Assembly (NCBI RefSeq): GCF_024300625.1 | Contig: NZ_CP101322.1 | Span: 43,992-75,991 of the forward strand | Direction: 5' to 3' | DNA length: 32,000 bases | Origin: Halovivax gelatinilyticus | GTDB lineage: Archaea; Halobacteriota; Halobacteria; Halobacteriales; Natrialbaceae | Part shown: positions 1 through 29,008 of the stretch, piece by piece | Layout: each line of letters begins with the position of its first letter | How positions within the stretch are numbered: the first letter of the stretch is position 1 | The notes under the pieces: model-generated | The model's input: the letters and a program-made list of their open reading frames with translations, nothing else | Told to the model about the DNA's origin: nothing | Database searches by the model: none | Program-made: the position numbers and the translations under genes

Positions 1-2727
1 ACGTCGCTTCTCGAGGTTGGTATCGATATTCCTGCCATCAAGGTCATCAGCCAATACCGAGCGCCCTGGGAGATGTCCCAGTTCGTTCAGCGCATCGGAC
101 GCGCATCCCGTAAGGAAGGGAACGATGCTCACTTCTTAATCACACTCGGTGACGAAGCCGCTGACAGAAGTCTCTTCCACCGTGCAGGGAGCTTCCTAGA
201 TCCGGAGATTACTACACCACTCAATACTGACAATGAGATTCTGACCTGGATTCACAGTCAGCTCTACAAGGCTTTTCAAACTGTCTATCGGATTAGGAGT
301 GCAGTGACCACCGGTGGGTCGACTCAGCAACAAGAAAAATTCCTCGAGTACTTTCTCCGTCGGTCGGATGAAGAGTCGTTCCAAGCTTTCGGCCAGTTTA
401 TCGAGGAGCCCGGTACAGAACTCACTAGTCTTCTCGAACAGCGGCTCCCGATATCAGGGTCGTTGAACGACCTCGAGACGATCGATGCTGTCTACAGCAC
501 AGTGCTACAGGCGGTCCAAGACGATGCACTCCTGACCGATATCGCGACCCTCCTTGACGAACCGGTCACACGGTTCACACTCCAGACGGGAAGGCTCGAT
601 GATCTAGACGACCAGATGGAGATAGGTATCCGGATGACCATCCAGGAAGTTAGGAACACAATTAACCAAGCTGAACCGCAAAATACTGCCGCCAGGGGCG
701 CTGTCGATGCAATTTCAAATCAACTATCTGAGGCCGAAACTATTCTAGATGACGGGGGTCAAGACAGACGAGACCGATACGATGACTTAGATGAGCTCTT
801 CAACAATGTCCGAAACCAACTAAGCTCGGTGGCATCTGATTTTACGGGCGTTCACGAGTCATTCCCCTATCATCTACGTCTTGAAGACGCAAACAGCGCA
901 ATCCAGGAGGCTCGCGGAATTCGACGTGATGAACAACTCCAGGATAAACGCCAGAGATGGCGGCGCGCGTACTACGTCAAACGGGCACTACAGGAGTACT
1001 ATTGCTTCGTGAATCAGCGTTTCAGTGATAATCAGGTGTATGGGCACCTGATGGTGCGAGCGTTTAAAGCTCTCTTACGAGCAGTGTACTTCTACGACCG
1101 GGCAGTGAACCTCGAATCAACACGTGGAGAACTTGAACCCCCTCACTTTGTGCCGACATCGTATTTCGGTGAAGCCGGCGAGACGTTCTCGGTAGTGCCT
1201 GAAGATCAGGCAGGGGCCCCTGGTGAGGAAGATTCTATAGATGCACTGTATGTCATTCGATTTGAACAAAATGACGACGACGAAGAACAGTTGGATGCGT
1301 CGCTAACCAAACTCTTCTTCGAGTACGCGCCGTATATGTCGAAGTACCTTTCTGACCAGTCACTCCAAATGTTCAATCCGCAGGTAGAGGAAGCCCCAGT
1401 CGACGCCGACGCCGACTACTACTTCGACATCTCCGGATTGAGCACGGAGCCAGGAGAAGACTTGGTCACGCCGAATACCCTGCCCGTGAAACAAGTCGAG
1501 GATCAGTCCGGCGACCAGGCACGCGCGATTGTTTGGTACTGCAATGAATCCCTCTACGTTGGCCGCAATCGGTGGGACCACGGACCACACGGAGAGGATA
1601 CCATGGACTACGGTCAGCTCCACTCAGAGCCGCATATCGGCACGGCGTTCGAACCCGAAGAGAGACCCACTGACCAAATCAGTGTATCGTATATCGATGC
1701 TGACGTGAGTCTCGACGCAGTAACACTGACAATCACGCCGGCAACGCTCGTAGGCGACCCTTCTGCAGAGAGTCCTCCCTTCCGCACCGAACGAGACGCG
1801 CAGCGCGAATTACTGCTGGAGTTCGAGCAACCGCTTGGTTTTTCGCTTCACTCCCGAGGCGTCATCTGGGATATCGGGGATTTCGTTGACGAACTCCTCG
1901 AGGATGAGGAATTCGTAGAAAATTTTGAAAGCCACAATCCAGGGGCCGACATCGAAGATACCATCCATTTTACGGCTGCTCACTTCCTCGTAGAGGTCGT
2001 TGCGGACGTCAGTGGGGTCAACCAGGCACAGATGCTCTACGCCGTCTCTCCAGATGCGAATCAAGTGGCAGTGTTCGAGCATGCTGAAGGGGGACAAGGT
2101 ATCGTTGATCTCTTTGACGACGTACGTAATCGTCTCGAGCACGAGAAGATGCTGCGAACTATTAACCGGGTCGCGTCGAATCCGCAGTTGATCAACGGCT
2201 CGCTCTGGGCCGACAATGAGTTTGTCGTCGCCGTTCGTGCCGGGGACTGGGCGACCGTCGAAGAATTCGTCCGTCAGCGAGTGGTCGTACCGACCGAGTC
2301 CGTGGTCAATGACGTGATGCAAATGGTCCAGAATACGGTCGACCAACTGGACGAATTCGCTGATGTCACTGATACAACGCTGGAGGAAGCCTACGAAATT
2401 CGCCACGCTGCGGCCCGATATCAGTTCGAGGTTGGGATCCACGACCCAGTCGAGGACCTCGAAGACGAAACACCAGACAGCGTTCAAGCGGAGAACCTCC
2501 GGAATCTCATCGTCGAACCCGACGTAGACGACTGTGTTGAAAACTTACATCTCGCATATAGCATCGTCATGGACCAGGGGAATGTCCTCAGCTATCTCGT
2601 CCTCGAGCGGCTTCACGAGCACGTCGTAACAAAGACCGACAGCGACGACTGGGGGGACGAAGTACTGGACCGCGAGGCAATTCCTGGAGTGAATATTGAT
2701 GGTACAAACGTTTTCCATACGCTCTGA
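1..2727 (+). CDS. C-terminal part of an SF2 (DEAD/DEAH) helicase with a long C-terminal extension, truncated by the window edge; DpdJ-like candidate
   Basis: The frame is open from base 1 (TSLLEVGIDIPAIKVISQYRAPWEMSQFVQRIGRASRK), giving helicase motif V (GIDIP) and motif VI (QRIGRASR). An ~850 aa extension follows. It overlaps a PLD gene. Confidence 0.82.
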   Translation, partial: TSLLEVGIDIPAIKVISQYRAPWEMSQFVQRIGRASRKEGNDAHFLITLGDEAADRSLFHRAGSFLDPEITTPLNTDNEILTWIHSQLYKAFQTVYRIRSAVTTGGSTQQQEKFLEYFLRRSDEESFQAFGQFIEEPGTELTSLLEQRLPISGSLNDLETIDAVYSTVLQAVQDDALLTDIATLLDEPVTRFTLQTGRLDDLDDQMEIGIRMTIQEVRNTINQAEPQNTAARGAVDAISNQLSEAETILDDGGQDRRDRYDDLDELFNNVRNQLSSVASDFTGVHESFPYHLRLEDANSAIQEARGIRRDEQLQDKRQRWRRAYYVKRALQEYYCFVNQRFSDNQVYGHLMVRAFKALLRAVYFYDRAVNLESTRGELEPPHFVPTSYFGEAGETFSVVPEDQAGAPGEEDSIDALYVIRFEQNDDDEEQLDASLTKLFFEYAPYMSKYLSDQSLQMFNPQVEEAPVDADADYYFDISGLSTEPGEDLVTPNTLPVKQVEDQSGDQARAIVWYCNESLYVGRNRWDHGPHGEDTMDYGQLHSEPHIGTAFEPEERPTDQISVSYIDADVSLDAVTLTITPATLVGDPSAESPPFRTERDAQRELLLEFEQPLGFSLHSRGVIWDIGDFVDELLEDEEFVENFESHNPGADIEDTIHFTAAHFLVEVVADVSGVNQAQMLYAVSPDANQVAVFEHAEGGQGIVDLFDDVRNRLEHEKMLRTINRVASNPQLINGSLWADNEFVVAVRAGDWATVEEFVRQRVVVPTESVVNDVMQMVQNTVDQLDEFADVTDTTLEEAYEIRHAAARYQFEVGIHDPVEDLEDETPDSVQAENLRNLIVEPDVDDCVENLHLAYSIVMDQGNVLSYLVLERLHEHVVTKTDSDDWGDEVLDREAIPGVNIDGTNVFHTL

Positions 2728-3163
2728 CCAAATCGCCCGATATCTCGGATCGGCGTTTCTCAACGCGACCCGGATAGTCATCGTCTCACCCTGGGTGAGC
2801 GATATCAAGGTCAAGGTCCCAGAGACGGACCAAATTGACGACCGAGAGTTACTGCTCTCTCAAGCGGTGAACCAGTTCGACGTTAACGTGACATTCGTCG
2901 TTGACCCTGCTAATAATGCCCACAACCGGTTACGGGCACAAGCCCTCCTCCCTAAAGTTAGTAGCCATGCGACGATCGAGACTGTAGATAACCTTCATGC
3001 GAAAGCTATTGTCACGGACCAAATTCTCTATCAGGGTTCAGCCAACGTGACCTACCACGGTCTGAATGTCAACGTCGAATTATGTGATCTTCGAGAAAAC
3101 GAATACGAGGACGCAAACGACTTCTTGCGGGAACGAATCGGGCTCGAACTTGGCGAGTCCTAA
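2699..3163 (+). CDS. Phospholipase D-like (single HKD motif) protein, DpdK-like candidate
   Basis: LHAKAIVTDQILYQGSANVTYHGLNVNVE matches the HxK(x)4D...GSxN pattern. The ORF track starts at TTG 2696; ATG 2699 is the likely start. It overlaps the helicase gene by ~29 nt. Confidence 0.8.
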   Translation: MVQTFSIRSDQIARYLGSAFLNATRIVIVSPWVSDIKVKVPETDQIDDRELLLSQAVNQFDVNVTFVVDPANNAHNRLRAQALLPKVSSHATIETVDNLHAKAIVTDQILYQGSANVTYHGLNVNVELCDLRENEYEDANDFLRERIGLELGES

Positions 3164-4479: not shown

Positions 4480-4733
4480 CTTCTGGTTTGGATGGTGGCA
4501 TCCTAAAACGCTCGATAAAGAGATTCAAGTAGTAACCGGCTGACTTTCAAATACCACGTGATAAAATTACTGTCGTACTATACCTATCCTCTGGATCATG
4601 CACACTAGCTATGTCAGACTCATATCGTTACAATGGCCCTCTGTTTAAAACGGTAGTGTTATTAGATCAATAGCCAAAATATTATTTTCAGTGGAGCAAT
4701 CGGGTTCTGAGTTCCTCCCATAGGATTATCATA

Positions 4734-8300: not shown

Positions 8301-9013
8301 TCCATCAACGACCGGACGTCTTCGGACGATTGGGGAGGAGTCCGGTTCGCGTGAGCAGCGTCGAGGTTAGCGAGGAGGGACTTTCTCGCATCCTCTGGAG
8401 TGATGCAGAACTCGCGGCACTTCTGCTGGGCCGTCCGAATCATTTCGCGAACCGTTGCCGGCGGATACGGCCGCCAGGACTCGTCCGGATACGCGTTCTC
8501 TAACCGCCCGAATTCCGCCCGGTGGGTGGTACGGAGGTCGGCGAAGATTTCGTCCCGGATTTCTTCGAGATCGGCGCTCGATTCCAGCTCGAAGTTCGGG
8601 GGCAAATCCATCTCCGTCGCAGCTTCGCCGAGCAATTCGTTGAAAAGCGAATCGATCGTCCGAATCTGGCTGTCGGTCTCCAACCATCGGAACACGTCGG
8701 CCGGAAGCTCGCCGTCGGCGTCCACGTGATTCCGAAGTACCTCCCTGAGGTCTTCTCTGAGTTCACTCGCGGCATCTCGTGTGAACGTCGTGAGGAGAAT
8801 GGACGAGAACGGGTTCGTACCGTCGGCTGCCGTTTCGACGATGACCTCCGCGACCGTCGTTAACATCGTCGTCGTTTTTCCCGTTCCCGCGGCGGCGTCG
8901 ACGGCGACCCGACCGGTGCCCTCGTGGAACGCCTCGATGACCGCGGCTTGATCCTCTACCGGAGTGTCGTCATCCGGTCCGAACTGAAGCGACATCTCTT
9001 CGACGTAGCTCAC
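5324..9013 (-). CDS. AddA-like UvrD-family helicase with C-terminal PD-(D/E)XK nuclease and Cys cluster
   Basis: Walker A AAAGTGKTTTML, FVFVDEFQDTSAAQ, LLAIGDVKQSIYQWRSAD, TLTTIHAAKGLEYPIVFLV, VAFTRAEDHLF. Nuclease motifs GTTVHKVLE, TGEIDLLYEADGVWHLADYKTT; Cys residues at ECPRRY and CGSCPYAFSRGGPC. Confidence 0.92.
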   Translation of the reverse strand: MSYVEEMSLQFGPDDDTPVEDQAAVIEAFHEGTGRVAVDAAAGTGKTTTMLTTVAEVIVETAADGTNPFSSILLTTFTRDAASELREDLREVLRNHVDADGELPADVFRWLETDSQIRTIDSLFNELLGEAATEMDLPPNFELESSADLEEIRDEIFADLRTTHRAEFGRLENAYPDESWRPYPPATVREMIRTAQQKCREFCITPEDARKSLLANLDAAHANRTPPQSSEDVRSLMETVVFDGADLSVTADDDDATERAREAFVDHVADTYERSHQLVEDFATILDAYEQLYDELTHERGHLTYQDATHLLRTFVEDNPDHPFVESLRRRFDFVFVDEFQDTSAAQCRVLRELVTDVGGRTRLLAIGDVKQSIYQWRSADPSIFGEIVGRAREAGEEGGRIPYLEVEDVVYRPLTSNFRSHPDLITAANGLFGELFEDAGRGDFGDVNVTYNDVSPKGPRKSWDDDFPHVHMLLLDFGLGDDFPSRGEDWTPVEAQEVAARIAAMVAGETDVSVFEGIDEDEGIEERTPKPGDVTLLFQARTHMHRYVDALSAYGIDAAPKATDDLFEQPEVTLLIDVLYWFTNPHDKASLMRILRSPFVACSDRTIRAIAGEGFYLGKFLEDGAWPTDLPEADRKRLKALVELRDDLRWDREGSKTDLLNRIIRHSAFDAVVLTGEDGIRRYGNVWALTQIIDGWEEEELLPYREFVERLTRLRNRAEETGEPDHTVAEVTDPEDEETVTLTTIHAAKGLEYPIVFLVDALRSWDSPPLQADRLVSDRDRGLALRPVASDRPLPNAVSFESPEDNLDTWMNEDRDAGRYPDLTGPIWISNDVDEDTGEFTYANPLNEFLAPSRAEFWRVLYVAFTRAEDHLFIGVADVPDWVENFTRWTTWATTINETLLPDASWGELDDIVEFDTRDGAVPIGVDDVPRASPTSHNPITVDDVDRHLDADPTNRTEIIPYRPNRISPSRIHDLVECPRRYQYRHVQEVASVYGGGPALDRDGEPVEEASTPGGVAPNKWGTTVHKVLEYRLLGRDQLARYANTLDPEIREYALWIVEAMERDSDRYRAALSADEVYPEYTVSTTLEIDDTTVTVTGEIDLLYEADGVWHLADYKTTDVHDADSYAGGKYARQLRTYAWLLERTYDVEVGDLTLLYVDVDEDSRAVDITPVTVEREGDVDDYEEELRYDLRSVAVKPPEGLSARPTETRCGSCPYAFSRGGPCEHGE

Positions 9014-12000: not shown

Positions 12001-12444
12001 GGCAAGTCGTTCGTGATCGTTGCCGGCATCGGTCGCGCGCCAATATCGATCCAGCTCGGTTCCGAGCGTTTCGTATAGTTCATCATCCCACGTATCCCCG
12101 ATCGATCCAATTAACGCGCGGAGTGCCGTGGGAGCGTCCTCCGCTTGCGCGTCTTCGACGACGCTCCGGAGAAGGCGCTCGGCAACGCGTTGATTCAGGA
12201 TACGCGGATCGCCATTATATCGCTGATCGAGCAGGCTTCGCGAGACGCTCTGAAGCGTCTCGTATTCCGCGACCTGACTCGGTTGAACGCCGCGTTCGAT
12301 CAGTCCCTCTCGAAGGTTCCGCATTGAACGCGCCCCGACGAGCAAACAAAGACCGTTTCCGGAATCGCCAACTGACCGGGGCTGGTCTTCCGCCTTTTCC
12401 CTAAGATACTGAAGTAAAGACCCGGCAGAGACCAGTGTCGCCAT
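9010..12444 (-). CDS. AddB-like protein, partner of the downstream AddA-like gene
   Basis: 1144 aa with inactivated-helicase-like architecture; C-terminal GQCDLKYYFYQF...CEGCSFRDLC Fe-S/nuclease-like region; 4-nt GTGA overlap with the AddA-like ORF. Confidence 0.75.
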   Translation of the reverse strand: MATLVSAGSLLQYLREKAEDQPRSVGDSGNGLCLLVGARSMRNLREGLIERGVQPSQVAEYETLQSVSRSLLDQRYNGDPRILNQRVAERLLRSVVEDAQAEDAPTALRALIGSIGDTWDDELYETLGTELDRYWRATDAGNDHERLAEATARLDDPFACHRNKRALAGLAALTAVLRDRTDPLPPEVFLSESHLTRAARDVLQEEWNRHFGDVEWVAVGTIKSVDNTMLRFFRELDDLEDGPELRFFFGVGSRERLADRFRRTGIDVRIASLESSNTSFFAENLVEAAVEGSRPDGIPDEVRFLDAPDRRREVERVARDIASNVREGSVTPGEHLVIPRETREYEAIIDDVFTTYGLPYHIESDRPLAQVVAYRFLKATVDLIAAAAKGDAVSYHDVVDPLRLGFCPLEDAPGDWPLDDASFLLLEERLHAITTGARLERRTVDEWRKSALEREGESEVWRQVVYFLSWALERAESAPVKGEEVTTLLDGLCQQHVVHVADAPVRRSGGPGVDTTRTDVIRKHPSHLAERVADELAGVGSYYDYLRDLDLAEPGWDLAAQALGDVVGRSQYATSNADGNAVRVVIPANTYFLSAKRAYLLGVGAGEFPAQHPTPTFLHDALSQTVQQYASEGPTDASPLYLPGGEAMYRRELDDYEAAVRTATEGITISRHARDSSGDRVSWSPFVASLTDVLDEADRGYERVRQSHWLPSETHHRDRADVTDTGPMRDRLRLLSYHCERDSTGAVFRPSDGAIESETDAIRLLSNADGPVYRSQIAPRRERFRHPKTTVTVSADEPAFEGDLSLADVVGAPIRPHEVDLMGQCDLKYYFYQFLVARDGPELNRDDWPEEESPYARELYPTVPAVVGNHYVPPSYRRAVEQLVTTHLPNRQADLGAYDDVAALRSDFEMWLGEDDELDESVFQALVGEYLTVTQELESGIDRSWSWRGEQRVEVGDHKLVIPPHRVDTISDIDDPVPVFQSGRQGGARAALKHCWTGTLRPERAERVCWSCERLDQCSIPTKHSIDTRARASAIDEAGGAFLLDRYASGPNGRQGFLLGDDIELVPHEQYVRTNGSTIFEKRTDMWREELEELLDSMTPENETVTYAVSEEFVNNGGCEGCSFRDLCGVPTRDGADESGGEDW

Positions 12445-12535: not shown

Positions 12536-14542
12536 TTATTGGGTGTCCACCGGACTGGTCGCACGGTCGTCCAGGTAGTCCAATAATTCTTGAATGTTGT
12601 CATTCCTGAAAAACTCGGTGAGCTGTAATGCCTGGGGAGATTCAGGAAATACCACTCCTTGACCGTATTCGTCAAACGCGTCCTCGATAACTCGCCTGTA
12701 CGTTTTGCTCGTCACGTAACCAATAATCTCGTCGAATTGATCGCCGTAGCGTTCGAGGTACTGTGAGACGCGACCGGTGACCAATTCGATCTGATCGGTG
12801 TCCTCTTTCGCGAGAACGTAATCATACTCCAATATTGGCTGTTCTCGCTCGAACTCTTCGGGCACGGGTCCGTACATTCCCGAAATTGTAACTTTATGTA
12901 CGGCTTCGCTCAGAGACCCAAGTTTATCGAACAAGATTGAATGAGTCCGCGAACGCGAGTAGGGCTTTTGCTGGCTGCACGGGACAAATAGAAGGATGTC
13001 TTTCTCCCTAGGAGGCTCGTACGATTGGGTGCTAACGTTGAAATCGTTCGGACTATGTTTGAGCGAGATTTGACGCGTGCCAACGGATTCGTCGATTCCG
13101 GCACCCCACTTGGAGAGCTTCGACTGATCGCTCGCCAACGTTGAACCTGGGAGGAGATCGTACGCGCCACGGGACTCGAGTACGTTTTTAAGTCGTTTGT
13201 TTCGAAGTTGAGCCTGCTTGAGCCCGCGCTTGATGTCATCGTGTTCTCTTGCAAACTCAACAACGTACTCTAGCAGTCGTCCCTCTCGAATAGCCCCGCG
13301 GACGCGTCCGAGTTCCTCATTGTACACTTCGAAGTTGTGCCGAGCAAGGAGCGCATAGTAATCACTTTTGATATTTTTCCCGTTCTCTTTTCTACGCTGT
13401 CGTTGCTCGTAGCTCAGATCGGTGTTGAGTTCTTTGACCAACCGGTCATAACTCACACCCCCATCTGAACACAGGAGACAATTCGGGAGATCGCACGGAT
13501 AACTTCTGTCCGGTCCTAGGTACTGATCTAGATCAGATAGTTTATGAGTCGTCCATGTCTCAGGATGGAGATACTTTTTATACTGTGCAGTATGCATGTG
13601 GGTTGAACAGTCAAACGTATCGACACCAAGAAGGGAGAGCAGGCCAACCTGTTTTCCACCCACACCGAAAACGTGGAGGCCGATTTCGTCCGAACGGGCT
13701 TCCGGAATAGCGTCTTTTGCTCCCTGAACGATATCCACCAATACATCGATACTATCTCGAAGCGGAACGAGCGATCCTACGGCAAATCCTTGGAACGAAC
13801 TGTCGATATCGAGTTTGTCGACACGATCGAGAAAGTTCCCAACGTACCAATTGACCGTTTCGTAATCGTGTCCGTGAAGCGCGACATATACGCTCGGCTC
13901 GTCACCAGCCGCCTGCCGCTCTCGCAAGTGATCCGCTGCGCGGCTGTTGATCGGGAACTCATCGTCGAGGAGATTTGGTTTATCGAGAAGGCGGAGACAT
14001 TCCACTGCGCTATCTATACTCCGATTCATCCGCTCAACTTTCTCTTCTTCTTTAAGATTCGGTGGAATTGGATAATCGAGGGTCGCAACTATGTCGGCCC
14101 CAAAGTCGAGCTGTAGACCGAGTATGCTTTTTGGGTCCGTGTAAAGTCCCCACTCGTTTGGGACACCGCCCTTCTCTGGAGCCTCGCCAAATGTGTTGGA
14201 ATTCATCAGCTTGAAACCGCCAGAATCGATGAAGATGGGGGCGTCGAGACGGTTGAAGCGCTCGTGAAATGTCTTTGGTCTCCAAAAGTCATTCAGATTG
14301 TTCGGAGATACGCCGTAGTCGGTGAAGCTCATCGCCTGAAACATTATCCCTTGAAGATGCTCCTTGTCGATGAGCTTATCCCGCATTCGACGCCAGACAC
14401 CGCCGGACTTCTCAGTAGTACCGCCGATAAGATTGACGACCGGGAACAATGCAGGCGTCTCTACGGGGCCGTGCGTCACATCTAATTCCCCTAGGCGGCC
14501 AAAACCGTCATCACCCACCGTCTTCACCCGAAAGGACGCCAT
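12536..14542 (-). CDS. TGT/DpdA-like transglycosylase fused to an ArcS-type DUF5591-like domain (DpdA-like candidate)
   Basis: IFIDSGGFKLMN, IVATLDYPIPPN, FAVGSLVP and GVDTFDCSTHM give the TGT active-site Asp positions. Zn-site-like CDLPNCLLC...RHNF. C-terminal PCSQQKPYSRSRTH fits PC-x3-KPY-x2-S-x2-H. No apparent PUA domain. Confidence 0.87.
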   Translation of the reverse strand: MASFRVKTVGDDGFGRLGELDVTHGPVETPALFPVVNLIGGTTEKSGGVWRRMRDKLIDKEHLQGIMFQAMSFTDYGVSPNNLNDFWRPKTFHERFNRLDAPIFIDSGGFKLMNSNTFGEAPEKGGVPNEWGLYTDPKSILGLQLDFGADIVATLDYPIPPNLKEEEKVERMNRSIDSAVECLRLLDKPNLLDDEFPINSRAADHLRERQAAGDEPSVYVALHGHDYETVNWYVGNFLDRVDKLDIDSSFQGFAVGSLVPLRDSIDVLVDIVQGAKDAIPEARSDEIGLHVFGVGGKQVGLLSLLGVDTFDCSTHMHTAQYKKYLHPETWTTHKLSDLDQYLGPDRSYPCDLPNCLLCSDGGVSYDRLVKELNTDLSYEQRQRRKENGKNIKSDYYALLARHNFEVYNEELGRVRGAIREGRLLEYVVEFAREHDDIKRGLKQAQLRNKRLKNVLESRGAYDLLPGSTLASDQSKLSKWGAGIDESVGTRQISLKHSPNDFNVSTQSYEPPREKDILLFVPCSQQKPYSRSRTHSILFDKLGSLSEAVHKVTISGMYGPVPEEFEREQPILEYDYVLAKEDTDQIELVTGRVSQYLERYGDQFDEIIGYVTSKTYRRVIEDAFDEYGQGVVFPESPQALQLTEFFRNDNIQELLDYLDDRATSPVDTQ

Positions 14543-14607: not shown

Positions 14608-15102
14608 CTAATCAGGATCCGTCACCGATTGGATTTGATCTGATATCTGGACAGTTGTGTACTCTGCGGCCTCAGTCCAGGAACTCTGCCATTCGTTTCC
14701 TTGTTTCGGCGGCTCCAGCGGAAATTCTACTGGATGATACGAGAGGTCGTCAATAGCCCCCGCTGCGATGGCTCCGACGAACTCCGCATTTTTCCGTTTC
14801 GATGAAACACCACCGCTAGCCAAGTCATAATAATTTGTGAATATTTGTGCGACGAGTACGATATCTACGTCAGTTCTTTCGTTGGTAAGATGACGGAAAA
14901 TCTTCGCAGAATTGTCGGCAGGATCAGCTCGCCTCCACTCCAATTCCAAGAGCACGAGCAGTTTGTCGTTTTCTCCACCGATGTCTACCGGTGTTCCGGC
15001 TAGATCATATTCAGTCTGCCATGACAAGCTAGTATTCGATTCACTGAGTCGGTTGTATATGTACGTCTGTACCTTCGAAGCAAATTCACCCATGTCGATC
15101 AA
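14608..15102 (-). CDS. Small protein with possible PD-(D/E)XK nuclease-like core
   Basis: TEYDLAGTPVDIGGENDKLLVLLELEWRRADPADNSAKI resembles D...ExE with a following Asn/Lys helix. It is coupled to the upstream GHKL ATPase. Start is TTG 15102 (4-nt overlap) or ATG 15093. Confidence 0.5.
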   Translation of the reverse strand: MIDMGEFASKVQTYIYNRLSESNTSLSWQTEYDLAGTPVDIGGENDKLLVLLELEWRRADPADNSAKIFRHLTNERTDVDIVLVAQIFTNYYDLASGGVSSKRKNAEFVGAIAAGAIDDLSYHPVEFPLEPPKQGNEWQSSWTEAAEYTTVQISDQIQSVTDPD

Positions 15103-16664
15103 TCGTCGGCGACGGCTCGCGGTGACATTGGTTCAATGTGGTGGCTGAGTGGCAATATCTCGACATAGGTAGGGTTCTCATCCCCGTAAAGTAGGCCGTT
15201 TTCCTCTAGATCAATCTCGATGTCTTCGCCGAGATACCCTTGCCGTTCGTATTCTCGTAACACCACCGGGTCCCCGTGATCCCAGCAAATTATGAGATCT
15301 ACTTCCTCGAACGTCAGCTCCTCATTGAAGTGATTTGTCAATGAACAGTGAACAGCCGCATTGCGAAGTTTCCCGTTCTGACGTGCAATCGCGTGTACGT
15401 CCGAATCCGGCTCGTAATCTTCGACAGAAATCTGTCCTGGTAAGGTATTCTCGTTCTCCCGTGCGAGCGTGAGTAGGACCTCAGTTCGATTCGATGGCTC
15501 ACCGGAGTCCCCCGATTCCACGCGCTCTCGTCGGAGCTTGAGTGAGGCACGGCGGTTCCGAGCTCGGCGTTTAATCTCCGCTTCTCGTCGGATTTCAAGA
15601 TATTCTTTGAACCACGGATCTTGTGCCACTTTCGATAGATGAAATTCGGTCGCTTCTTTGAGCGCCTGGAACACAGGGCTCGATTTATTTCGAATCGTTT
15701 CACGATTGGCTGATAATTCGATATCTTGGCAGTTCACAACAAAGAAGAAGTGAAGGAATTCATTGTCATGAGAGATTGCCTCGTTCAGCCGTTCAACCTT
15801 GATGTGATCCTTTGCAAGCCAGACACCGAACTGTGCGGAATGCTTTCCATAGGTAGGAAGCTCGTTTCGAGCGGCTTTCCCACCGACCATTCCAGTGATG
15901 TGGAGCGTCGTCGTGCCACCATCGTAATCGGCTTCGACCTCTGTCGGTCCGTAGTGTTTACACATTCGCTCGGCAGGGAAATCTGACGAGTAATCGGGCT
16001 CAAGTTGTTCGTTCGGGAACTCAAGTCGGTTCTTCGTCTCAACTTCCGGATATGAATCGTCTATTTCGTCACCAAGACGAACAGTGATGTCCATTTCGTG
16101 CTGATCGTCCTCGAACATGTGTGCCGTCGAGCCGGCGATAGTTTTCCACTTTAGATAATGTTCGATCTTATTATAAGTGAGTGATTCCGGATCGAATCCC
16201 TGACCGGATCGGAAATTGTGGATTCTGATCCTCGTTCCCTTGTGAAGATTGCTTACAGGTGTTTCAGTGACTTCGTACTCAGGAAGTACCCGGTTGTTAA
16301 GTTTTTTCCAAGGGTCACTCATCACCGCCCGGAGGTTGGTGCCATCATGGACGGTATTGACGACGATCTCATCGCTTTTGTAGAATATTTTCGTCCCATG
16401 ACCTTTGTACCCTATCGAATCCGTCTTGCGCGAATTCCCCAAATCGAAAAAGGATTCGAGGTCACGGAGGTCCATGCCGTCTCCATCGTCATCGATGATG
16501 ATGTCAGAGCCCATCTCTCGACTTTTAATCTCGATTTCAATATTTGAAGCATTTGCATCGTACGAGTTCGATAGCGATTCCCGGATTACCTCAAGCGGGT
16601 CCTCGAAGTCGCTCGCAATTTCGAGGAACTCGTTCACTTCGTTGACCTTTGGAGCTTTTTTCAT
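15099..16664 (-). CDS. GHKL (HSP90/MutL/MORC-like) ATPase domain protein
   Basis: N-box VIRESLSNSYDANA, IIIDDDGDGMDLRDL (DxGxG), SIGYKGHGTKIFYKSD, and GTRIRIHNF. 4-nt ATGA overlap with the preceding TGT-like gene. Confidence 0.88.
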   Translation of the reverse strand: MKKAPKVNEVNEFLEIASDFEDPLEVIRESLSNSYDANASNIEIEIKSREMGSDIIIDDDGDGMDLRDLESFFDLGNSRKTDSIGYKGHGTKIFYKSDEIVVNTVHDGTNLRAVMSDPWKKLNNRVLPEYEVTETPVSNLHKGTRIRIHNFRSGQGFDPESLTYNKIEHYLKWKTIAGSTAHMFEDDQHEMDITVRLGDEIDDSYPEVETKNRLEFPNEQLEPDYSSDFPAERMCKHYGPTEVEADYDGGTTTLHITGMVGGKAARNELPTYGKHSAQFGVWLAKDHIKVERLNEAISHDNEFLHFFFVVNCQDIELSANRETIRNKSSPVFQALKEATEFHLSKVAQDPWFKEYLEIRREAEIKRRARNRRASLKLRRERVESGDSGEPSNRTEVLLTLARENENTLPGQISVEDYEPDSDVHAIARQNGKLRNAAVHCSLTNHFNEELTFEEVDLIICWDHGDPVVLREYERQGYLGEDIEIDLEENGLLYGDENPTYVEILPLSHHIEPMSPRAVADD

Positions 16665-17908
16665 TGGAAGTACCCCCCGAGCGAGTGGTTAACTACTCGA
16701 TGAGCAGACTCTCGAGTTGGTTTATCTTGTGCAACAGTGCCTTCGATATACTCGACCAACGATGACGAATCACCTGATTTGACCCGTTGGCGAACCTCTT
16801 CGATCTCTCGTTTTTGAATGATTAAGTTGTGCATAGCTACCGGCCCCAACATGTCTTTTTTATATGGAGCATTTCCACGCATCCACCTTCGCATGTGCTG
16901 AGACGAGCATACTGGGCAATCACACTCGTCAAAATTCGCTTCATTAACGTTCACCGTCTCCATAAGTGATAGGAAATATCCACCGTTGATCGCATTTTGC
17001 AAGTACGTCGATGAATCGAAGGTGTCTACGCCAAGCGCAACAAGTAATGGGACGGCTCTGCTGGAAATTCCGAGAACGTGCAACGGTAATTTGTCGAAAC
17101 CCCAATCGTGTAGCACTTCGTGGCAATCGATTACAGCGTCGATTAGGGCCGACCGATTGTCCTTCATTGGTACGAGACTACCAAGGGCAATTCCGTCGAA
17201 AGACGACCGAAGCTTTTCCGCGCTCACATAGTCAGTTATCTCGGTGAGGAAAGCGTCCATCATCGAGTAGTTATATCCGTGTAAAGTGAGGTACCGGGCC
17301 CCGGTATACTCGTCAGACAGGTCAAGAAATATCTCGATGTTTTTTCCCGTTTTTCGGGCTTTTTCGAGCCGTTCCTCGTGAGTATCGGACGGCGTTATCG
17401 GGTGGTCGAGATTGACGATGATATCACCACCCATTCGTTTCTGTATCTCGAATACTTTCGCTTGATCGATATCCTCTTGGAAGTCGCTTCCATCCAGGCT
17501 TTCATTATTTAAGAATTTGAATCCACCAGAGTCTAGGAAGATAACTCCGTTAAAAGGTGAAAACACCTCTCGTTCTTTTATCGGTTCATAGACATAGTCG
17601 GCATATCGTTCTTTTGAGACGTTGTAGTCGGTGAGGGACGAAACGGAGGTCATGACCGCATCAAAGAATTTCGCGTATGCATCATCCCCCCCAATTCGGT
17701 CAGCTCCGATCATAAACTCCTTGACCGTTCGATGGATACCCCCGCCGTAAACACTATTCTCGGTACCGCCACCGTAAAAATTTACGACCGGGAATAGGTT
17801 TGGTGTTTCAATTACCGAGTCACCAATTGTCAGCTTACCAGCACGGGCGTCTCCCACCGTCTCCGAAACCTCAAAATTTGCCGAATAACTTGTCTTTGAA
17901 TATGACAT
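16661..17908 (-). CDS. Short TGT/DpdA-like transglycosylase (second paralog)
   Basis: VIFLDSGGFKFLN, IIVNLDHPITP, IALGSLVPM, GVDTFDSSTYL. Zn motif CDCPVC-x25-H matches the CxCx2Cx25H pattern. Confidence 0.87.
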   Translation of the reverse strand: MSYSKTSYSANFEVSETVGDARAGKLTIGDSVIETPNLFPVVNFYGGGTENSVYGGGIHRTVKEFMIGADRIGGDDAYAKFFDAVMTSVSSLTDYNVSKERYADYVYEPIKEREVFSPFNGVIFLDSGGFKFLNNESLDGSDFQEDIDQAKVFEIQKRMGGDIIVNLDHPITPSDTHEERLEKARKTGKNIEIFLDLSDEYTGARYLTLHGYNYSMMDAFLTEITDYVSAEKLRSSFDGIALGSLVPMKDNRSALIDAVIDCHEVLHDWGFDKLPLHVLGISSRAVPLLVALGVDTFDSSTYLQNAINGGYFLSLMETVNVNEANFDECDCPVCSSQHMRRWMRGNAPYKKDMLGPVAMHNLIIQKREIEEVRQRVKSGDSSSLVEYIEGTVAQDKPTRESAHRVVNHSLGGYFQ

Positions 17909-18369
17909 TAGTTAACCTTCCTAATACCCGACTCTTCGCCTTGAAGGAACTGTTTGAGCGAGCGCCCCTTCAAACCGATACCATCTCCCTGTACCAGGTA
18001 TGTCTCAACATCTAGTCCTTCATCAAATCCGTCAATGGCCCTTCGATACTCTTTACCAGCGTTAATGACAACTCGTTTATATTGTTTCTCGGTGACCCGA
18101 TTTTTCAGCTCATTCCTTACTTTTGGTCCGAGCTCTTTTGCCCTGTGAGAGTCCATTCTTCGGTCATACGGAGAGATTGGTTCTTCAGGATCGATGATAC
18201 CGTGTTTCGCAGATAGAATACATAAGTCACAATCAGAATATCCGCCTCCCTCTCCCATCGATTTTTTGATAATTTTGAAGAAGTATCCAGAATACAGTTC
18301 GAGGGCAGAGACGGGTTTATCCGGCTCGATTTTGGACTTCGAGCAAGATTGAACGAGCAGCGTCGACAT
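17908..18369 (-). CDS. DUF6884-like standalone protein, probable partner of the short TGT-like protein
   Basis: LLVQSCSKSKIEP, LCILSAKHGIIDPEEPISPYDRRM. TAATG stop/start overlap with the downstream TGT-like gene. Confidence 0.72.
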   Translation of the reverse strand: MSTLLVQSCSKSKIEPDKPVSALELYSGYFFKIIKKSMGEGGGYSDCDLCILSAKHGIIDPEEPISPYDRRMDSHRAKELGPKVRNELKNRVTEKQYKRVVINAGKEYRRAIDGFDEGLDVETYLVQGDGIGLKGRSLKQFLQGEESGIRKVN

Positions 18370-21111: not shown

Positions 21112-21141
21112 ACCCAAAGAATATCCCGAGTGCACATAAGC

Positions 21142-22052: not shown

Positions 22053-25000
22053 ATGGTTGATACCGATGATCGGCCGGCAGTCACACTAAATCCGAGCGGT
22101 CTCGGCCAATACATCAGTTATTCTGGGTGTCCGCGATTTTTCAGACTGAAGTTTTTCGACCACGGCCTCGTGAATAAGCGAAACTGGTACGATCCGAACG
22201 CAGGTAGTGACCTTTTCGCAGAACTTGGGTTAGCCTACGAAGAAGAACAATTGAAAACACTCAGTGAGGATGCATCCCGAGTCATCGGGGACACTGACAG
22301 CGATGGTGATGTGATCCCATATGATGAGACGTGGGAAGACAATACGGGATCACACGGCGACATAGAAACGCAGTGGAAAGGTGGAGTCCGTGAACAGTTG
22401 ATCAATCTGATCGAGACCCTCGCAGATAGCGACCATGACGAGTTGGATGGACCCGTCGTGTTGTTCCAGACACCCATGTTTGGACGGATCGGAGTCTGGG
22501 ACATTGCTGGTATTGCCGATCTCATCACACTGGAACCGCTTCCGGAGAGTCGCGGCGTCCGAACTAGAGTTCTGGAGGTCAAGACGTCCTGGAAGGACAA
22601 GACATCTCAGCAGATTCAATCGACGATCTATAGTTTACTATTAAGCACGGTGGTTTCCGAGTGTGGCGTCGATCATGAACCCGTCGCCACAGTAGTTAAT
22701 CGTGAGGCAGACCTCCGCGAACATCCCCTGCCGGAACTCCCGCCGATCGATCTTCCCTCGCGGACCGCGGAGGTGAAACGCCTGTTGAAACAGGATGGTG
22801 AACTACACCAGTTAGCGCGAAAGTCGTTTGACGAGGTCGGGTATCGCCTCGAACGAAAATGCGACGGGTGCCCGTATAACGGGATTTGTTTCACGAAAGC
22901 AATTGAATCACGCGATCCAGCACTGTTGAACCTCACACAGGGGAATCAGGAACGGCTTCGAGTGCAGGGCATAGACTCGCTCGCGGGGTTGACCGACCTG
23001 TTTGAGCGAGAAGAGGGGACGAAACCGTATGATTACGACGAACTCCCAGTACGTGATGAGACAATCGTTCGTGCCTTAGAGAGTGAGGGAACCCTTTCGA
23101 ATCGCCTCGACGAAATCGTTCAACGGGCTCAGGTACTCCGTGGAGAACTCGATCCGTCGTACGACTCGTTCGGCGGCGTAGAGTACCTACGTGGCAGTGG
23201 GAACGGCAATCTCCCTGACGACGATCCGCATCCACGATTGCCCGGAGGGGCGTGTGAGCGCAACGAACTGATCCGGGTGTACCTGTACGTCCAGCACGAT
23301 CCCGTACGTGACCGGCTGGCGCTCTTGGCTGCTCGCATCAATTGTGACAAGACCGATGCGACGACCGTCGTTGAATTTAGCGAGCAACTCCCAGCGGCGA
23401 AAGACGATAGCCTCGACGCGGAAGCGAAGCTACTGGAAGCGTTTTTCGAACGGCTAATCAAAGCAATCCAGGGCATAAAAGCCGAGTTTGGCTCGAGTCC
23501 AGACCAGGGCTATGTCCATCTGTACACGTATTCCGCCCACGAACGGGACGCACTCATGGAGGGTGTTCAACGACAACCGTCCGTCTTTGGAAGCGCCGCA
23601 GTACGTGATCTTCTGGGACTACGAGAGGGACTCGACCAACCGATGGTGTCGGTCGTGCATAACGATATTACGAGTCGCTTGGCGTTACAATACCCGGGGA
23701 CAGGGCTCATCCAGACAGTCGAGCAAATGCAGGCGTTCGCCGACGAGTCCTATCCTCGACGCTGGTTTTCTGCTACCGATTGGAAAGCGACGATTGCTGG
23801 CGACGAAGTTGACCTTCGGGATGTATTCAGGACTGGGTTGTTCGAGGGGAAGCGAGCGTACGTCGAGGAGGGCAACTCGATCAGATTGCTCCTTGGTGAT
23901 CCAGGCGATCCGGATCGGGAGCCAGATGGCTTCTACCCACTGTACAATCGATTTGGAAATCAGATTCCCCTGGAGTACCTGTGGGCTGCTCGCGGTAAGT
24001 TAGACGATGATGTGGAACTCGGGACGGGCAGTTCGTCGCTCTCAACATATCGGTACTACGACGGGGAGGGCTCCAAACCGATCGGAGCCCCAGAAGTGAA
24101 AGCACTCGCACAGCGACTGACGGAAGCTCTCGAGCACGTCGAACGGGCGATCGCGTACAAGAACTGGCAAATCGATAAGCAACCACTCGATTTGAGCCGA
24201 CTGCCAGCCTTCTCGCTTGAAAATATTGAACTGAACCGTGCCTGCCAAGAGTATCTTGATCTGGAACACACGACGAACTATCGTGACTGTCTCGACCATT
24301 ACCTCAAACCGCCTCGAAAGCGCATGCAGACCGGCGATTCGACGATTTTCCGCGTCACGAACGTCGAACCTGCTGGCCAGTGGGATATCCGCGTCGAGGG
24401 CGATCTTCTCTATGACGAGTTGTTCCGAAATCCGGATCAGGTGATCGATAGTTGCCGGATCAGCGGCTCGGACGACGGCGGCTCCGGAAGCTGGCGAGTA
24501 ATGTCGAAACTCGAGCGCAACGGCAGGGAATTCAGACAAGTCAATGCGACATACCCGCGGTATCTGGCAAATTCGATCAAGGCATCCGTCGAGTCGTTCG
24601 ATCGAACCGGCAAAACGATCACGGTGAGTGCATCGACCCACGGTGGGTTCGGCCGCAGCCGGTACCTTGAGTGGCACCGGAGTGCAACGATGGAACCCGA
24701 GGAAGCCGACGGAGAGGATTACACGACGCTGGTCTCTGAAGGTGACCTCTTTGTGCTTGATCCGTACGCGGATTCTTACCCCGCGCTCAGAGCCTACGAA
24801 GCGCTCGAGCGGACGGAGTCGAACGCGTTGTACCACCAGTTGAACCGCGCGTTCCAGGACGGCGAAACTGAGCAGTTCGACCGGCAGTTTTGTTCGCCGA
24901 CCGCTGTTGCGGACTTCATCGAAACGTTCGAGGATGCGACGGGTGCGCGTCCCCGCGGGAACCAGGCGGAGTTCGTTAAGGAAGTTGACCACAGCGTCTC

Positions 25001-26483
25001 CGTTCTGCAAGGGCCGCCAGGAACCGGCAAGACCAGTTTTACGCTTGCACCGGCGGTGTTAGCTCGACTCGCAGCGAGCGAAGACGAGGGGGATCGGTTA
25101 CTCACGGTTGTGACTGCGCCGTCGCACACTGCTGTTGATGAAGCGATGGAGGACATCGTCACGAACTGGGCCGACCTCACTGAGAGTTCAGCAACCACTG
25201 CGGCAACCGAGTTTGTTCGGGTTCGTGCCGGTTCTTCCACCGATGTCCGTGAGGCCGTCGACGAGCACGTACGGTTTGTCGATTATTACGATACAACTGA
25301 TGTGGTCGAGATGACCGACGCGCTTCGTCCACACGTGACGCCGGACGGTCGGGCGACGAATCATCTCGTCGTGTTCACCACGCCGACATCGCTTCGGGGT
25401 GTGATTAACAAATGCTCGGGTGAGTTATTCGCTCTCGACGACGCTGAAGCGGTGATGGATGCCGGGATTTCGTTCGTCGATTTGCTGGCGATCGACGAGG
25501 CGAGTATGCTCGATCTGCCGGCGACGCTCCTCTCGAGTGCGTTCCTCAAGGACGATGCACAAACGCTCCTCATCGGTGACCACCGGCAAATGGAGCCAGT
25601 TCAACAACACGACTGGGAGGGGGAGGATCGCCGAACCATCGAAGAGAATGTGCCGTTCATGTCGGTGTTGAACTTCGTCCGATTCCTCAGAGGCGACCTT
25701 GAGGAAACCGATTTTGCATTCGCCCAATCACCCGATATCGGTGACGCGATTCCGATCACACGCCTCGACCGAACCTATCGGCTACACACTCGAGTCGCTG
25801 ACTTGCTCACTGACCTGGTGTACACTGACGACGGGATAAAACTCAAATCAAGCCAGACAGCGACGATTGATCACGTTCACGCCGGTACGGACGGCGTTGC
25901 AGCCGCGATGAATCCGCAAGCTCCGGCTGCCCTTGTTATTCATGACGAGGACGAGAGCCAAGACGCTAACCGAACCGAGGTCGCTATTGTAGCCGCGTTG
26001 TTGAGCGCGTTGGATGATCCACAACCAACGGAGACTGGAATTGTGACGCCACACAATGCCCAGAAAGGACGACTCAACCAGCAGTTTAATGGAACCGCAA
26101 CGATCGATACCGTCGAGCGGTTTCAGGGTGGGGAACGCGATGTCATGGTTATCTCGGCCACTGCAAGCGACCCGGACTATGTCCGAAGCGAAGCCGAATT
26201 TCTGTTAAATCCAAACCGATTGAACGTCGCCATGTCCCGAATGAAGAAGAAACTCGTCATCGTTGCAAGCGAATCCGTGTTTGAGGTGACACCACCGAAT
26301 GCCGATGAGTTTGACCAAACGTTGATATGGAAGCGCTTGTACGACGCCCTTGGCGTCACCGACAATAGCCCAGCGACGTCAGTTTGGGAGGGAGATCTTG
26401 GTGAGTTTTGTCCAAGTAACGTTGATATTCCCCGCGGAAAATCCGGCACGAATATCGATGTCTACGCCTTGGAATCGGAGTAA
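22053..26483 (+). CDS. Dna2-like protein: N-terminal Cas4/RecB-like nuclease with Fe-S cysteines plus C-terminal UPF1-type SF1 helicase
   Basis: SYSGCPRFFRLKFF, AGIADLITLE...TRVLEVKTSW, CDGCPYNGIC. Helicase VLQGPPGTGKTS, LAIDEASMLD, LLIGDHRQMEPV, VERFQGGERDVMVIS, NRLNVAMSRMKKKLVIV. Confidence 0.94.
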   Translation: MVDTDDRPAVTLNPSGLGQYISYSGCPRFFRLKFFDHGLVNKRNWYDPNAGSDLFAELGLAYEEEQLKTLSEDASRVIGDTDSDGDVIPYDETWEDNTGSHGDIETQWKGGVREQLINLIETLADSDHDELDGPVVLFQTPMFGRIGVWDIAGIADLITLEPLPESRGVRTRVLEVKTSWKDKTSQQIQSTIYSLLLSTVVSECGVDHEPVATVVNREADLREHPLPELPPIDLPSRTAEVKRLLKQDGELHQLARKSFDEVGYRLERKCDGCPYNGICFTKAIESRDPALLNLTQGNQERLRVQGIDSLAGLTDLFEREEGTKPYDYDELPVRDETIVRALESEGTLSNRLDEIVQRAQVLRGELDPSYDSFGGVEYLRGSGNGNLPDDDPHPRLPGGACERNELIRVYLYVQHDPVRDRLALLAARINCDKTDATTVVEFSEQLPAAKDDSLDAEAKLLEAFFERLIKAIQGIKAEFGSSPDQGYVHLYTYSAHERDALMEGVQRQPSVFGSAAVRDLLGLREGLDQPMVSVVHNDITSRLALQYPGTGLIQTVEQMQAFADESYPRRWFSATDWKATIAGDEVDLRDVFRTGLFEGKRAYVEEGNSIRLLLGDPGDPDREPDGFYPLYNRFGNQIPLEYLWAARGKLDDDVELGTGSSSLSTYRYYDGEGSKPIGAPEVKALAQRLTEALEHVERAIAYKNWQIDKQPLDLSRLPAFSLENIELNRACQEYLDLEHTTNYRDCLDHYLKPPRKRMQTGDSTIFRVTNVEPAGQWDIRVEGDLLYDELFRNPDQVIDSCRISGSDDGGSGSWRVMSKLERNGREFRQVNATYPRYLANSIKASVESFDRTGKTITVSASTHGGFGRSRYLEWHRSATMEPEEADGEDYTTLVSEGDLFVLDPYADSYPALRAYEALERTESNALYHQLNRAFQDGETEQFDRQFCSPTAVADFIETFEDATGARPRGNQAEFVKEVDHSVSVLQGPPGTGKTSFTLAPAVLARLAASEDEGDRLLTVVTAPSHTAVDEAMEDIVTNWADLTESSATTAATEFVRVRAGSSTDVREAVDEHVRFVDYYDTTDVVEMTDALRPHVTPDGRATNHLVVFTTPTSLRGVINKCSGELFALDDAEAVMDAGISFVDLLAIDEASMLDLPATLLSSAFLKDDAQTLLIGDHRQMEPVQQHDWEGEDRRTIEENVPFMSVLNFVRFLRGDLEETDFAFAQSPDIGDAIPITRLDRTYRLHTRVADLLTDLVYTDDGIKLKSSQTATIDHVHAGTDGVAAAMNPQAPAALVIHDEDESQDANRTEVAIVAALLSALDDPQPTETGIVTPHNAQKGRLNQQFNGTATIDTVERFQGGERDVMVISATASDPDYVRSEAEFLLNPNRLNVAMSRMKKKLVIVASESVFEVTPPNADEFDQTLIWKRLYDALGVTDNSPATSVWEGDLGEFCPSNVDIPRGKSGTNIDVYALESE

Positions 26484-28882: not shown

Positions 28883-29008
28883 AGTTATGAGACACACTGT
28901 TGATCGTGAAAATCATAGAAACCACACCGCAATGTGTTTTTCTTCGAAAGCCGGGTTCGACGGTCGGGGCGGGCTGGAAAGCGGGACGCGGAGGTGACGA
29001 CTGACGCT

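Follow-up and report, generated by a model that had tools for sequence, protein, structure and literature searches.

A 32,000-nucleotide stretch of the genome of Halovivax gelatinilyticus (contig NZ_CP101322.1, positions 43,992 to 75,991; hereafter the window) contains a gene whose product joins a tRNA-guanine transglycosylase (TGT) domain to a DUF5591 domain of the type found as C1 in archaeosine synthase (ArcS). Judging from its residues and its gene neighborhood, we consider this fusion protein to be probably a bifunctional DNA 7-deazaguanine modification enzyme, which would serve as the modification ('M') arm of a restriction-modification or defense island similar to the Dpd system. Most likely, it marks the cell's own DNA in an uncharacterized antiviral system of archaea and bacteria. 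The evidence is the conservation of two complete catalytic centers in one polypeptide and the linkage of its gene, in both domains of life, with genes similar to dpdJ and dpdK.

Architecture and conservation of the fusion protein

The protein matches a 'DUF5591 domain-containing protein' of H. gelatinilyticus with 100% identity. Pfam analysis assigned residues 13-435 to TGT (5.5e-27) and residues 505-632 to DUF5591 (6e-21) and gave no further domain, thus no match to PUA (PF01472) or TGT_C2 (PF14810). The three sequence elements named in a preliminary description of this DNA, IDSGGF, GVDTFDCS and PCSQQKPYSRSRTH, are all present in the open reading frame (ORF). The last of them fits the strict ArcS motif PC-x3-KPY-x2-S-x2-H, which occurs only once in the window (regular-expression search of the six-frame translation). 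An AlphaFold2 model built on 28 homologs (mean predicted local distance difference test score, pLDDT, 80.5; predicted template modeling score, pTM, 0.67) showed a barrel with its helical/Zn subdomain (residues 1 to about 460), which a disordered linker (467-496) connects to a compact alpha/beta domain (500-661). The model ends one helix past the DUF5591 fold, with nothing past residue 661 and no beta-barrel tail, in agreement with the earlier suggestion that a PUA tail is missing. In Foldseek searches, the PDB structures nearest to the whole model were those of archaeosine TGT (arcTGT; 1j2b and 1iq8). When the C-terminal domain was modeled by itself (pLDDT 80.7), AF0587 (2q07), a DUF5591+PUA protein, was its sole significant PDB match (E 2.9e-6), and sequence matches of this domain to 2q07 had E values of 3.4e-10 and 7.7e-11. 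The C-terminal domain is DUF5591/ArcS-like by both sequence and fold, as had been anticipated, and the fusion is accurately described as an arcTGT-like front end followed by an ArcS-type C1 domain, minus C2 and PUA.

Members of the fusion family (29-100% identity) were found in haloarchaea, Cyanobacteria, Chloroflexota and Poribacteria. We examined conservation in 28 haloarchaeal sequences and in a set of 20 sequences that includes bacterial members (29-55% identity). D106, D156, the loop G256-S-L-V-P260, D311, C350, C355 and H402 in the TGT domain, and C522, K526, P527, Y528 and S531 in the DUF5591 domain, were invariant in both sets, and H534 of the motif was kept in at least 90% of sequences. 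Bacterial members retain the Zn-binding spacing C-x-C-x2-C. This pattern indicates strong purifying selection on both catalytic centers. Since the catalytic and motif residues are invariant in 20 members down to 29% identity, the fusion architecture is not a chance arrangement.

Comparison with curated models separated the fusion from known enzymes. It scored 112.9 and 53.2 bits with the ArcS models NF040592 and NF053620 (NCBIfam equivalog cut-offs of 440 and 600 bits) and 104.6 bits with the arcTGT model TgtA TIGR00432 (cut-off 350), and the only NCBIfam model that it passed was the general TGT superfamily; these cut-offs rule out a canonical ArcS or arcTGT. A reference ArcS with C2 and PUA domains (P0250, 800.7 bits) and a reference arcTGT (P0268, 525 bits) were both recovered as distant relatives of the fusion. 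Canonical ArcS clusters additionally have PF14810 and PF01472. The fusion shares with ArcS the C1/DUF5591 domain and its motif, but its N-terminal domain is not degenerate, retaining D156 and GSLVP. With arcTGT it shares the two catalytic Asp residues, the substrate-binding Asp and the Zn site, but not the C2/PUA domains for tRNA G15. The C1 domain of arcTGT can be aligned with DUF5591, yet it has no Cys. Assignment as DpdA or DpdA4 likewise found no support in hidden Markov models (DpdA4 corresponds to DUF6610, which was not matched). PADLOC returned zero matches of any kind for the fusion, and among PHROGs only an unannotated family matched it, weakly (1.4e-5) and across the DUF5591 region. 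A 170-residue viral protein resembles the C-terminal domain (E 1.8e-6).

The preliminary description had held that the two acidic positions of the TGT domain are typically lacking in ArcS. This does not hold for the 31 canonical ArcS sequences that we aligned with MAFFT, a narrow sample drawn from Methanosarcinales only: both aligned columns contain Asp (D[AG]GS in 30 of 31, G[IV]DxxD in all 31). What these sequences have lost is D156, replaced by Pro in 31 of 31, the GSLVP/GGVVP loop, replaced by EGAG in 31 of 31, and part of the barrel. The distinctive trait of the fusion is an intact TGT pocket as a whole and not the two Asp residues alone. As a side observation, a metagenomic protein of 465 residues (P0262) combines a RaSEA-like radical-SAM N-terminal half with a DUF5591 domain containing the full motif; here the ArcS-RaSEA partnership is found in one chain, without a TGT-like domain.

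Distribution and gene neighborhoods

At least 378 homologs of about 660 residues have the same two domains. When 1.84 billion cluster representatives were searched exhaustively, 583 relatives emerged, many of them full-length (600-650 residues) and 30-40% identical, and relatives occurred in 148 of 185,579 species (one genome per species). Bacterial carriers belong to Cyanobacteria (Planktothrix, Nostoc, Microcoleus, Spirulina, Coleofasciculus and Microseira) and Chloroflexota (Thermogemmatispora, Aggregatilineales and Anaerolineae), and there are also many in Poribacteria. Full-length copies reside on two haloarchaeal megaplasmids; no full-length homolog was found in the phage collection. Because of its low GC content (47-54% in the module of the window, compared with about 60-66% in parts of the flanks), its presence on megaplasmids, the adjacent integrases and its sparse distribution, the gene is accessory and mobile in character.

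Neighboring genes within 10 kb were compared in the best 79 loci, 27 haloarchaeal and 52 bacterial. In 23 of the 27 haloarchaeal loci the fusion gene occurs together with genes for a DUF6884 protein, a 415-residue TGT and a GHKL ATPase, in varying order, and this four-gene module often adjoins genes for the synthesis of 7-cyano-7-deazaguanine (preQ0) or for a Vut_1/YhhQ transporter, as well as integrases. In the window, the stop and start codons of the minus-strand genes from QueD to the AddA-like gene mostly overlap. The second TGT and the TGT domain of the fusion are 29% identical (E 7e-48) and more similar to each other than to arcTGT; the second TGT shows weak matches to DpdA models (27.7 bits, cut-off 200; PADLOC 8e-7). 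By analogy, it is possible that the GHKL ATPase is a functional counterpart of the DpdB ATPase. The fusion is the sole TGT or nitrile-modifying gene within 10 kb in all 52 bacterial loci and in four haloarchaeal ones.

ORF clustering revealed one pair of neighbors common to archaeal and bacterial loci, a DEAD-type helicase and a phospholipase D (PLD) family nuclease. The helicase (about 1350 residues) has a weak C-terminal match to the MrfA Zn-binding (MZB) domain, and its best PADLOC matches were to DpdJ (1e-63, 8.5e-57 and 6.3e-45); the nuclease (about 160 residues) had DpdK as its top matches (1.7e-15 and 6.5e-10). The helicase gene begins 20-42 bp beyond the fusion stop codon, on the same strand, in six cyanobacterial or Chloroflexota loci, and the two ORFs abut in a seventh, from Thermogemmatispora; the PLD gene was detected downstream of the helicase in three of these seven loci. 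Seven haloarchaeal loci have the helicase within 10 kb, five of them with the PLD gene as well. The frame of the window helicase is open at the window edge, and its product shares 51% identity with a homolog of 1404 residues (alignment over 886 residues). Other fusion loci contain NurA+HerA or a NucS/YhcG nuclease, an HNH endonuclease (10 haloarchaeal loci), GmrSD_N/DUF262 and HEPN proteins (6 cyanobacterial loci), a PD-(D/E)XK-superfamily 1 (SF1) helicase of about 1500 residues (9 haloarchaeal loci and the window) or an N6/N4 DNA methylase (10 Poribacteria loci). A neighborhood of this kind characterizes modification genes of restriction-type systems, as opposed to genes for tRNA enzymes.

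Several of these loci have a recurrent layout. Where the second TGT is absent in L012, L020 and L087, the PD-(D/E)XK + SF1 helicase gene stands immediately after the fusion and is followed by two genes for hypothetical proteins and one for a STAND-like NTPase of about 970 residues. In filamentous cyanobacteria (L035-L037, L043 and L047), the fusion is followed by a GmrSD_N/DUF262 (ParB-like) protein of about 365 residues and then by a MAE_28990-type HEPN protein of about 210 residues. This is a second conserved bacterial operon type, in which the DUF262 protein might stand in for the DpdB ATPase. A distinct system was seen on plasmid pHsi139 of Haloarcula sinaiiensis (L088; NZ_CP073372.1, 118246-135073), where a 344-residue TGT is encoded with QueD and QueE, an EVE-domain protein, a BREX-type ATPase and a PD-(D/E)XK nuclease; we take the EVE domain to be a PUA-like fold that reads modified bases. 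Short TGTs similar to this one occur on about nine other haloarchaeal plasmids.

Proposed function, alternatives and related systems

The following scheme would account for these observations. FolE, QueD, QueE and QueC are encoded in the island and would together supply preQ0. The TGT domain, whose catalytic residues are present and invariant, would follow the standard TGT mechanism and replace a guanine of double-stranded DNA with preQ0: D311 would act as the nucleophile and form a covalent deoxyribosyl-enzyme intermediate, D106 would serve as acid/base, and D156 and the GSLVP loop would hold the deazaguanine. We infer the DNA substrate from context, since preQ0 genes, DpdJ/DpdK-like genes, nucleases, plasmids, integrases and the occurrence in bacteria all favor a DNA target. 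By comparison with ArcS and phage ArcS2, the tethered DUF5591 domain might then attack the nitrile of the inserted base, with C522 probably forming a thioimidate, aided by K526, Y528, S531 and H534. Addition of ammonia would give 2'-deoxyarchaeosine (dG+), lysine or another amine would give a stable adduct, and water would give the amide; candidate products of the predicted reaction are dG+, an adduct or dADG, the deoxynucleoside of 7-amido-7-deazaguanine. As in Dpd, the modified base would be a self mark, and the DpdJ-like and DpdK-like proteins together with the variable nucleases would act on unmarked DNA. In haloarchaea, the fusion may work beside, or in a complex with, the second TGT, the DUF6884 protein and the GHKL ATPase, and in Cyanobacteria and Chloroflexota it is the sole modification gene of the operon. 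The earlier proposal that one polypeptide both inserts the base and modifies it in DNA is partly supported: it fits the bacterial loci, and the context favors DNA.

Several observations weigh against this scheme. Genomics cannot separate out what the fusion itself contributes in the haloarchaeal module, which already includes a DpdC-like protein and a TGT that is DpdA-like. The fusion matched neither DpdA models (NCBIfam NF041059, PADLOC) nor phage TGT/DpdA PHROGs. Its Zn-binding spacing in haloarchaea is the non-canonical C-x4-C-x2-C, with C358 present in 21 of 28 sequences, and how the two domains are placed relative to each other in the model is uncertain, given the disordered linker and the pTM of 0.67. 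The 10-kb surroundings of the fusion in more than 40 Poribacteria species yielded no conserved nuclease partner, the DNA methylase of 10 loci being the sole find, and in this group the fusion may have an RNA target or an orphan role. Finally, a tblastn search with one RaSEA-like segment, a single query of limited sensitivity that covered the window and 86 related loci and not the rest of the genome, revealed no RaSEA-like gene near the fusion, whereas ArcS of T. kodakarensis accepts even a preQ0 nucleoside and is inactive without RaSEA (PMC11298593). The product might accordingly be formed directly with ammonia or glutamine, or be a stable adduct.

It is also conceivable, if rather improbable, that the fusion acts in maturation only. 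In this case the 415-residue TGT and the GHKL ATPase would insert preQ0, and the fusion would be an analog of ArcS for DNA rather than a transglycosylase, with a TGT domain that merely binds or flips the preQ0 nucleotide, as the ArcS N-terminal domain presumably does, while DUF5591 converts it. The 415-residue paralog has the canonical CxCxxC..H zinc site and the weak DpdA-model matches that the fusion does not have, the two proteins occur together in most haloarchaeal loci (23 of 27), and ArcS shows that Asp can be kept at both catalytic columns in a protein that is not a transglycosylase. However, the fusion has kept D106, D156, D311, GSLVP and the invariant Zn ligands, of which ArcS lost D156 and GSLVP; 52 bacterial and four haloarchaeal loci lack another TGT within 10 kb; and seven bacterial loci have the fusion as their lone modification gene before DpdJ/DpdK-like genes. 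The order of the two steps could instead be reversed, which we think improbable: DUF5591 would convert free preQ0, as base or nucleotide, to archaeosine base (G+) or another derivative, which the TGT domain would then insert. The domain fusion could channel a base whether free or bound in DNA, ArcS acts on the preQ0 nucleoside and on the 5'-phosphate nucleotide, DpdA2 is promiscuous for the inserted base, and the sequence of steps is also unresolved for phage Gat-QueC/DpdA1. The reactions of ArcS and ArcS2 were reported on preQ0 bound in nucleic acid, and the GSLVP loop is similar to GGVVP, the loop of arcTGT that is specific for preQ0; both points speak for insertion first, although neither is decisive.

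That the fusion is a PUA-less arcTGT/ArcS paralog modifying tRNA or another RNA, with an incidental location in the island, appears quite unlikely and is a concern mainly for Poribacteria, where the gene is widely kept without nuclease partners. The closest solved relative is indeed arcTGT, databases label the fusion as tRNA-guanine transglycosylase, and the PUA domain of arcTGT was reported to be dispensable for archaeosine formation. Nevertheless, the fusion scored far under the TgtA and ArcS equivalog cut-offs, its distribution is patchy, accessory and plasmid-borne, and in archaea as well as bacteria it shares operons with DpdJ/DpdK-like genes and genes for other DNA nucleases. It also occurs in bacteria, where, to our knowledge, neither archaeosine in tRNA nor a pathway for it is known. 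Very unlikely, in our view, is a role as an eraser or sensor, in which the TGT domain would remove or exchange 7-deazaguanines of invading viral DNA and so expose this DNA to the nucleases of the island. Haloviruses do carry such bases (e.g., dPreQ1 in HVTV-1), and defense glycosylases directed against deazaguanine-modified phage DNA exist. Yet a conserved nitrile-modifying domain would have no part in erasure, and the full preQ0 pathway of the island and the preQ0 transporter in related loci argue for insertion.

The preferred assignment, a bifunctional DNA modification enzyme, shares features with several known systems. As in Dpd of Salmonella Montevideo (DpdA/DpdB/DpdC + DpdD-K), the island has a TGT-family transglycosylase, a DUF6884/YaaA-like protein of the DpdC type, an ATPase, DpdJ-like helicase and DpdK-like PLD nuclease genes and linked preQ0 synthesis genes; linkage with preQ0 synthesis and dpd restriction genes was seen in the window and in 14 related loci. 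Unlike Dpd, it has a DUF5591 domain joined to a transglycosylase that misses DpdA models, two TGT paralogs and archaeal hosts, and from the restriction set only DpdJ- and DpdK-like proteins recur with the fusion. No ParB/DndB-type DpdB was found at the fusion locus; its place is taken by the GHKL ATPase in haloarchaeal modules and by the DUF262 protein in the six cyanobacterial loci. In Vibrio phage nt-1, DpdA2 and a standalone ArcS2 produce dG+ in E. coli DNA (PMC10516641). This pair, like that of Sulfolobus virus STSV2, resembles the fusion in placing a PUA-less DUF5591 core with the motif beside a DNA transglycosylase, but here both activities would be in one polypeptide, with DUF5591 joined to the TGT domain and not standalone. 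Because the fusion genes are cellular and linked to restriction-type genes, they suggest a self mark rather than viral anti-restriction.

In the archaeosine pathway, in which arcTGT is followed by ArcS-RaSEA, the parallels are the arcTGT-like N-terminal domain and the ArcS C1 core with its exact motif. The differences are the missing C2/PUA, a RaSEA gene not found nearby, one protein in place of two enzymes, and an accessory gene that is borne on islands and plasmids and is also bacterial. H. gelatinilyticus presumably has canonical tgtA and arcS, as expected for haloarchaea in general. DISARM (DrmA, DrmB with DUF1998, and the PLD protein DrmC) likewise has counterparts among the partners of the fusion, namely a large DEAD helicase with a weak MZB match followed by a small PLD nuclease, with weaker PADLOC matches to DrmA and DrmC; we take MZB to be the former DUF1998. 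The partners match DpdJ and DpdK best, however, and the modification gene is a deazaguanine enzyme, not a methyltransferase. BREX-related capture (BRC), with TGT(-GNAT) proteins, is a 2026 proposal in which a defense system recruits a TGT homolog, sometimes fused to GNAT, to mark DNA, and it too has HerA partners. It differs in having GNAT rather than DUF5591 as the fused partner and PglZ/BrxC rather than a DpdJ/DpdK-like core, and BRC components are absent from the window.

DUF6884 is the Pfam family of DpdC, which converts preQ0-DNA to the 7-amido derivative (ADG-DNA). We compared it with DUF5591; the window protein of this family opens with LLVQSCSKSK and the DUF5591 domain with LLFVPCSQQKPY. 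C9, S10 and K13 were invariant in 24 DUF6884 homologs. An hhalign comparison of 79 fusion C-terminal domains with these 24 sequences gave 127 collinear columns with a P-value of 9.8e-5 and a probability of 58%, and the profiles share CS-x2-K, SGxYG/SAxHG, YD and YR. Pairwise BLAST was marginal (E 0.001 over 27 residues), and the C-terminal domain of the fusion model matched phage YaaA and DUF6884 folds with E values of 1e-3 to 2e-2 and probabilities of 0.99-1.0. The two families are probably remote homologs; as the hhalign probability is only 58%, homology is not proven. Should the families be homologous, a single Cys-dependent nitrile-activating fold has ArcS C1 and DpdC as its branches, and the haloarchaeal module holds both branches, each with its own TGT. 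The idea that the fusion offers an alternative to DpdC finds support in the bacterial loci, where the fusion is alone, but not in the window and the 23 haloarchaeal loci in which a DUF6884 gene accompanies it.

A broader and more speculative possibility, which we advance only tentatively, is that haloarchaea, cyanobacteria and Chloroflexota share a single-chain 'insert-and-convert' family that puts archaeosine, or an as yet unseen amine or amino-acid adduct of 7-cyano-7-deazaguanine, into chromosomal DNA. This base would be the self mark of a minimal three-gene Dpd-like system (fusion, DpdJ-like helicase and DpdK-like PLD nuclease), DUF5591 and DUF6884 would represent one Cys-Ser-x2-Lys nitrile-activating fold, and the haloarchaeal module would write two marks. 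In the literature searched, the 7-deazaguanines of cellular DNA are dPreQ0 and dADG, made by bacterial DpdABC, and dG+ and other derivatives are only viral. It describes the Dpd system, the phage enzymes DpdA1-4 and ArcS2, and the BRC proposal. The same literature (the 2016 PNAS and 2018 Mol Microbiol papers on Dpd were outside its scope) yielded no description of the TGT-DUF5591 fusion, of its DpdJ/DpdK linkage or of the haloarchaeal four-gene module. If the proposed function is correct, cellular epigenetic self marks would cover a wider chemistry, which might include dG+ or a new adduct, and both Archaea and a compact three-gene form would be added to the range of Dpd-type immunity. The fusion would also be a one-gene tool for site-specific insertion and derivatization of deazaguanines in DNA, and the apparent homology of ArcS C1 and DpdC would bring together two enzymes that convert nitriles by mechanisms yet to be solved.

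Other genes of the island

The features of the fusion gene and its neighbors are listed in Table 1. The PD-(D/E)XK + SF1 helicase protein is a candidate restriction component. The AddA-like and AddB-like genes were also considered as partners of the system and rejected, as they have no counterpart in any of the 86 related loci, and their membership in it is uncertain for this reason. The pair, which here occurs in an archaeon, appears to be a genome-specific insertion in the island.

Table 1. Positions of the fusion gene, its domains and motifs, and neighboring genes, numbered from the first nucleotide of the window
Feature	Position	Strand	Remarks
Fusion gene	12536..14542	minus	668 aa, ATG start; TGT + linker + DUF5591 (ArcS C1-type)
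TGT (beta/alpha)8 barrel + Zn subdomain	13163..14542	minus	residues 1 to about 460
DUF5591 / ArcS C1-type alpha/beta domain	12560..13045	minus	residues 500-661; carries PCSQQKPYSRSRTH
D106 in IDSGGF	14213-14230	minus	fusion TGT domain
D156 in TLDYP; GSLVP loop			fusion TGT domain; loop at residues 256-260
D311 in GVDTFDCS	13604-13627	minus	fusion TGT domain
Zn ligands C350/C355/C358/H402			fusion TGT domain
PCSQQKPYSRSRTH	12941-12982	minus	residues 521-534, DUF5591 domain
QueD	20650-21135	minus	preQ0 biosynthesis
QueE	19874-20665	minus	preQ0 biosynthesis
FolE	19275-19898	minus	preQ0 biosynthesis
QueC	18584-19282	minus	preQ0 biosynthesis
DUF6884 (DpdC-family) protein	17908..18369	minus	153 aa; starts LLVQSCSKSK
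Second TGT paralog	16661..17908	minus	415 aa; LDSGGF, GVDTFDSS, CDCPVC..H
GHKL ATPase	15099..16664	minus	521 aa; HATPase_c_3; MutL/BbrUII-like N-terminus
Family-less protein	14608..15102	minus	164 aa; start overlaps GHKL ATPase stop by 4 nt
AddB-like protein	9010-12444	minus	1144 aa; directly downstream of fusion, same strand
AddA-like protein	5324-9013	minus	1229 aa; UvrD + PD-(D/E)XK; pairs with AddB-like protein
DpdJ-like DEAD-type helicase	1..2727	plus	C-terminal ~908 residues of ~1400 aa; extends beyond window start
DpdK-like PLD-family nuclease	2696..3163	plus	155 aa; PADLOC DpdK 1.7e-15; PLDc_2 28.2 bits
PD-(D/E)XK + SF1 helicase	22053..26483	plus	1476 aa; PADLOC MkoA 1e-41, DpdJ 1e-18

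The family-less 164-residue protein is also encoded in five other haloarchaeal loci. In a Halorutilales locus (L003), the place after the ATPase is taken by a gene for a protein of 184 residues (15287-15841) that appears GIY-YIG-like by eye, and it is possible that this position is a variable slot for small nucleases. The lowest GC content of the window (43-44%) was found at 3001-5000. Between the DpdK-like and AddA-like genes, there are two minus-strand ORFs, one at 3508-4479 for a protein of 323 residues with weak PADLOC matches to PDC-M34B, and one at 4734-5204 for a protein of 156 residues with zero matches. At the far edge of the island, a DUF4143/AAA_14 ATPase (27120-28688, minus strand) and a vWA-domain protein with a weak match to a pPIWI_RE-associated restriction endonuclease (28934-31090, plus strand) may form a further defense-type pair.

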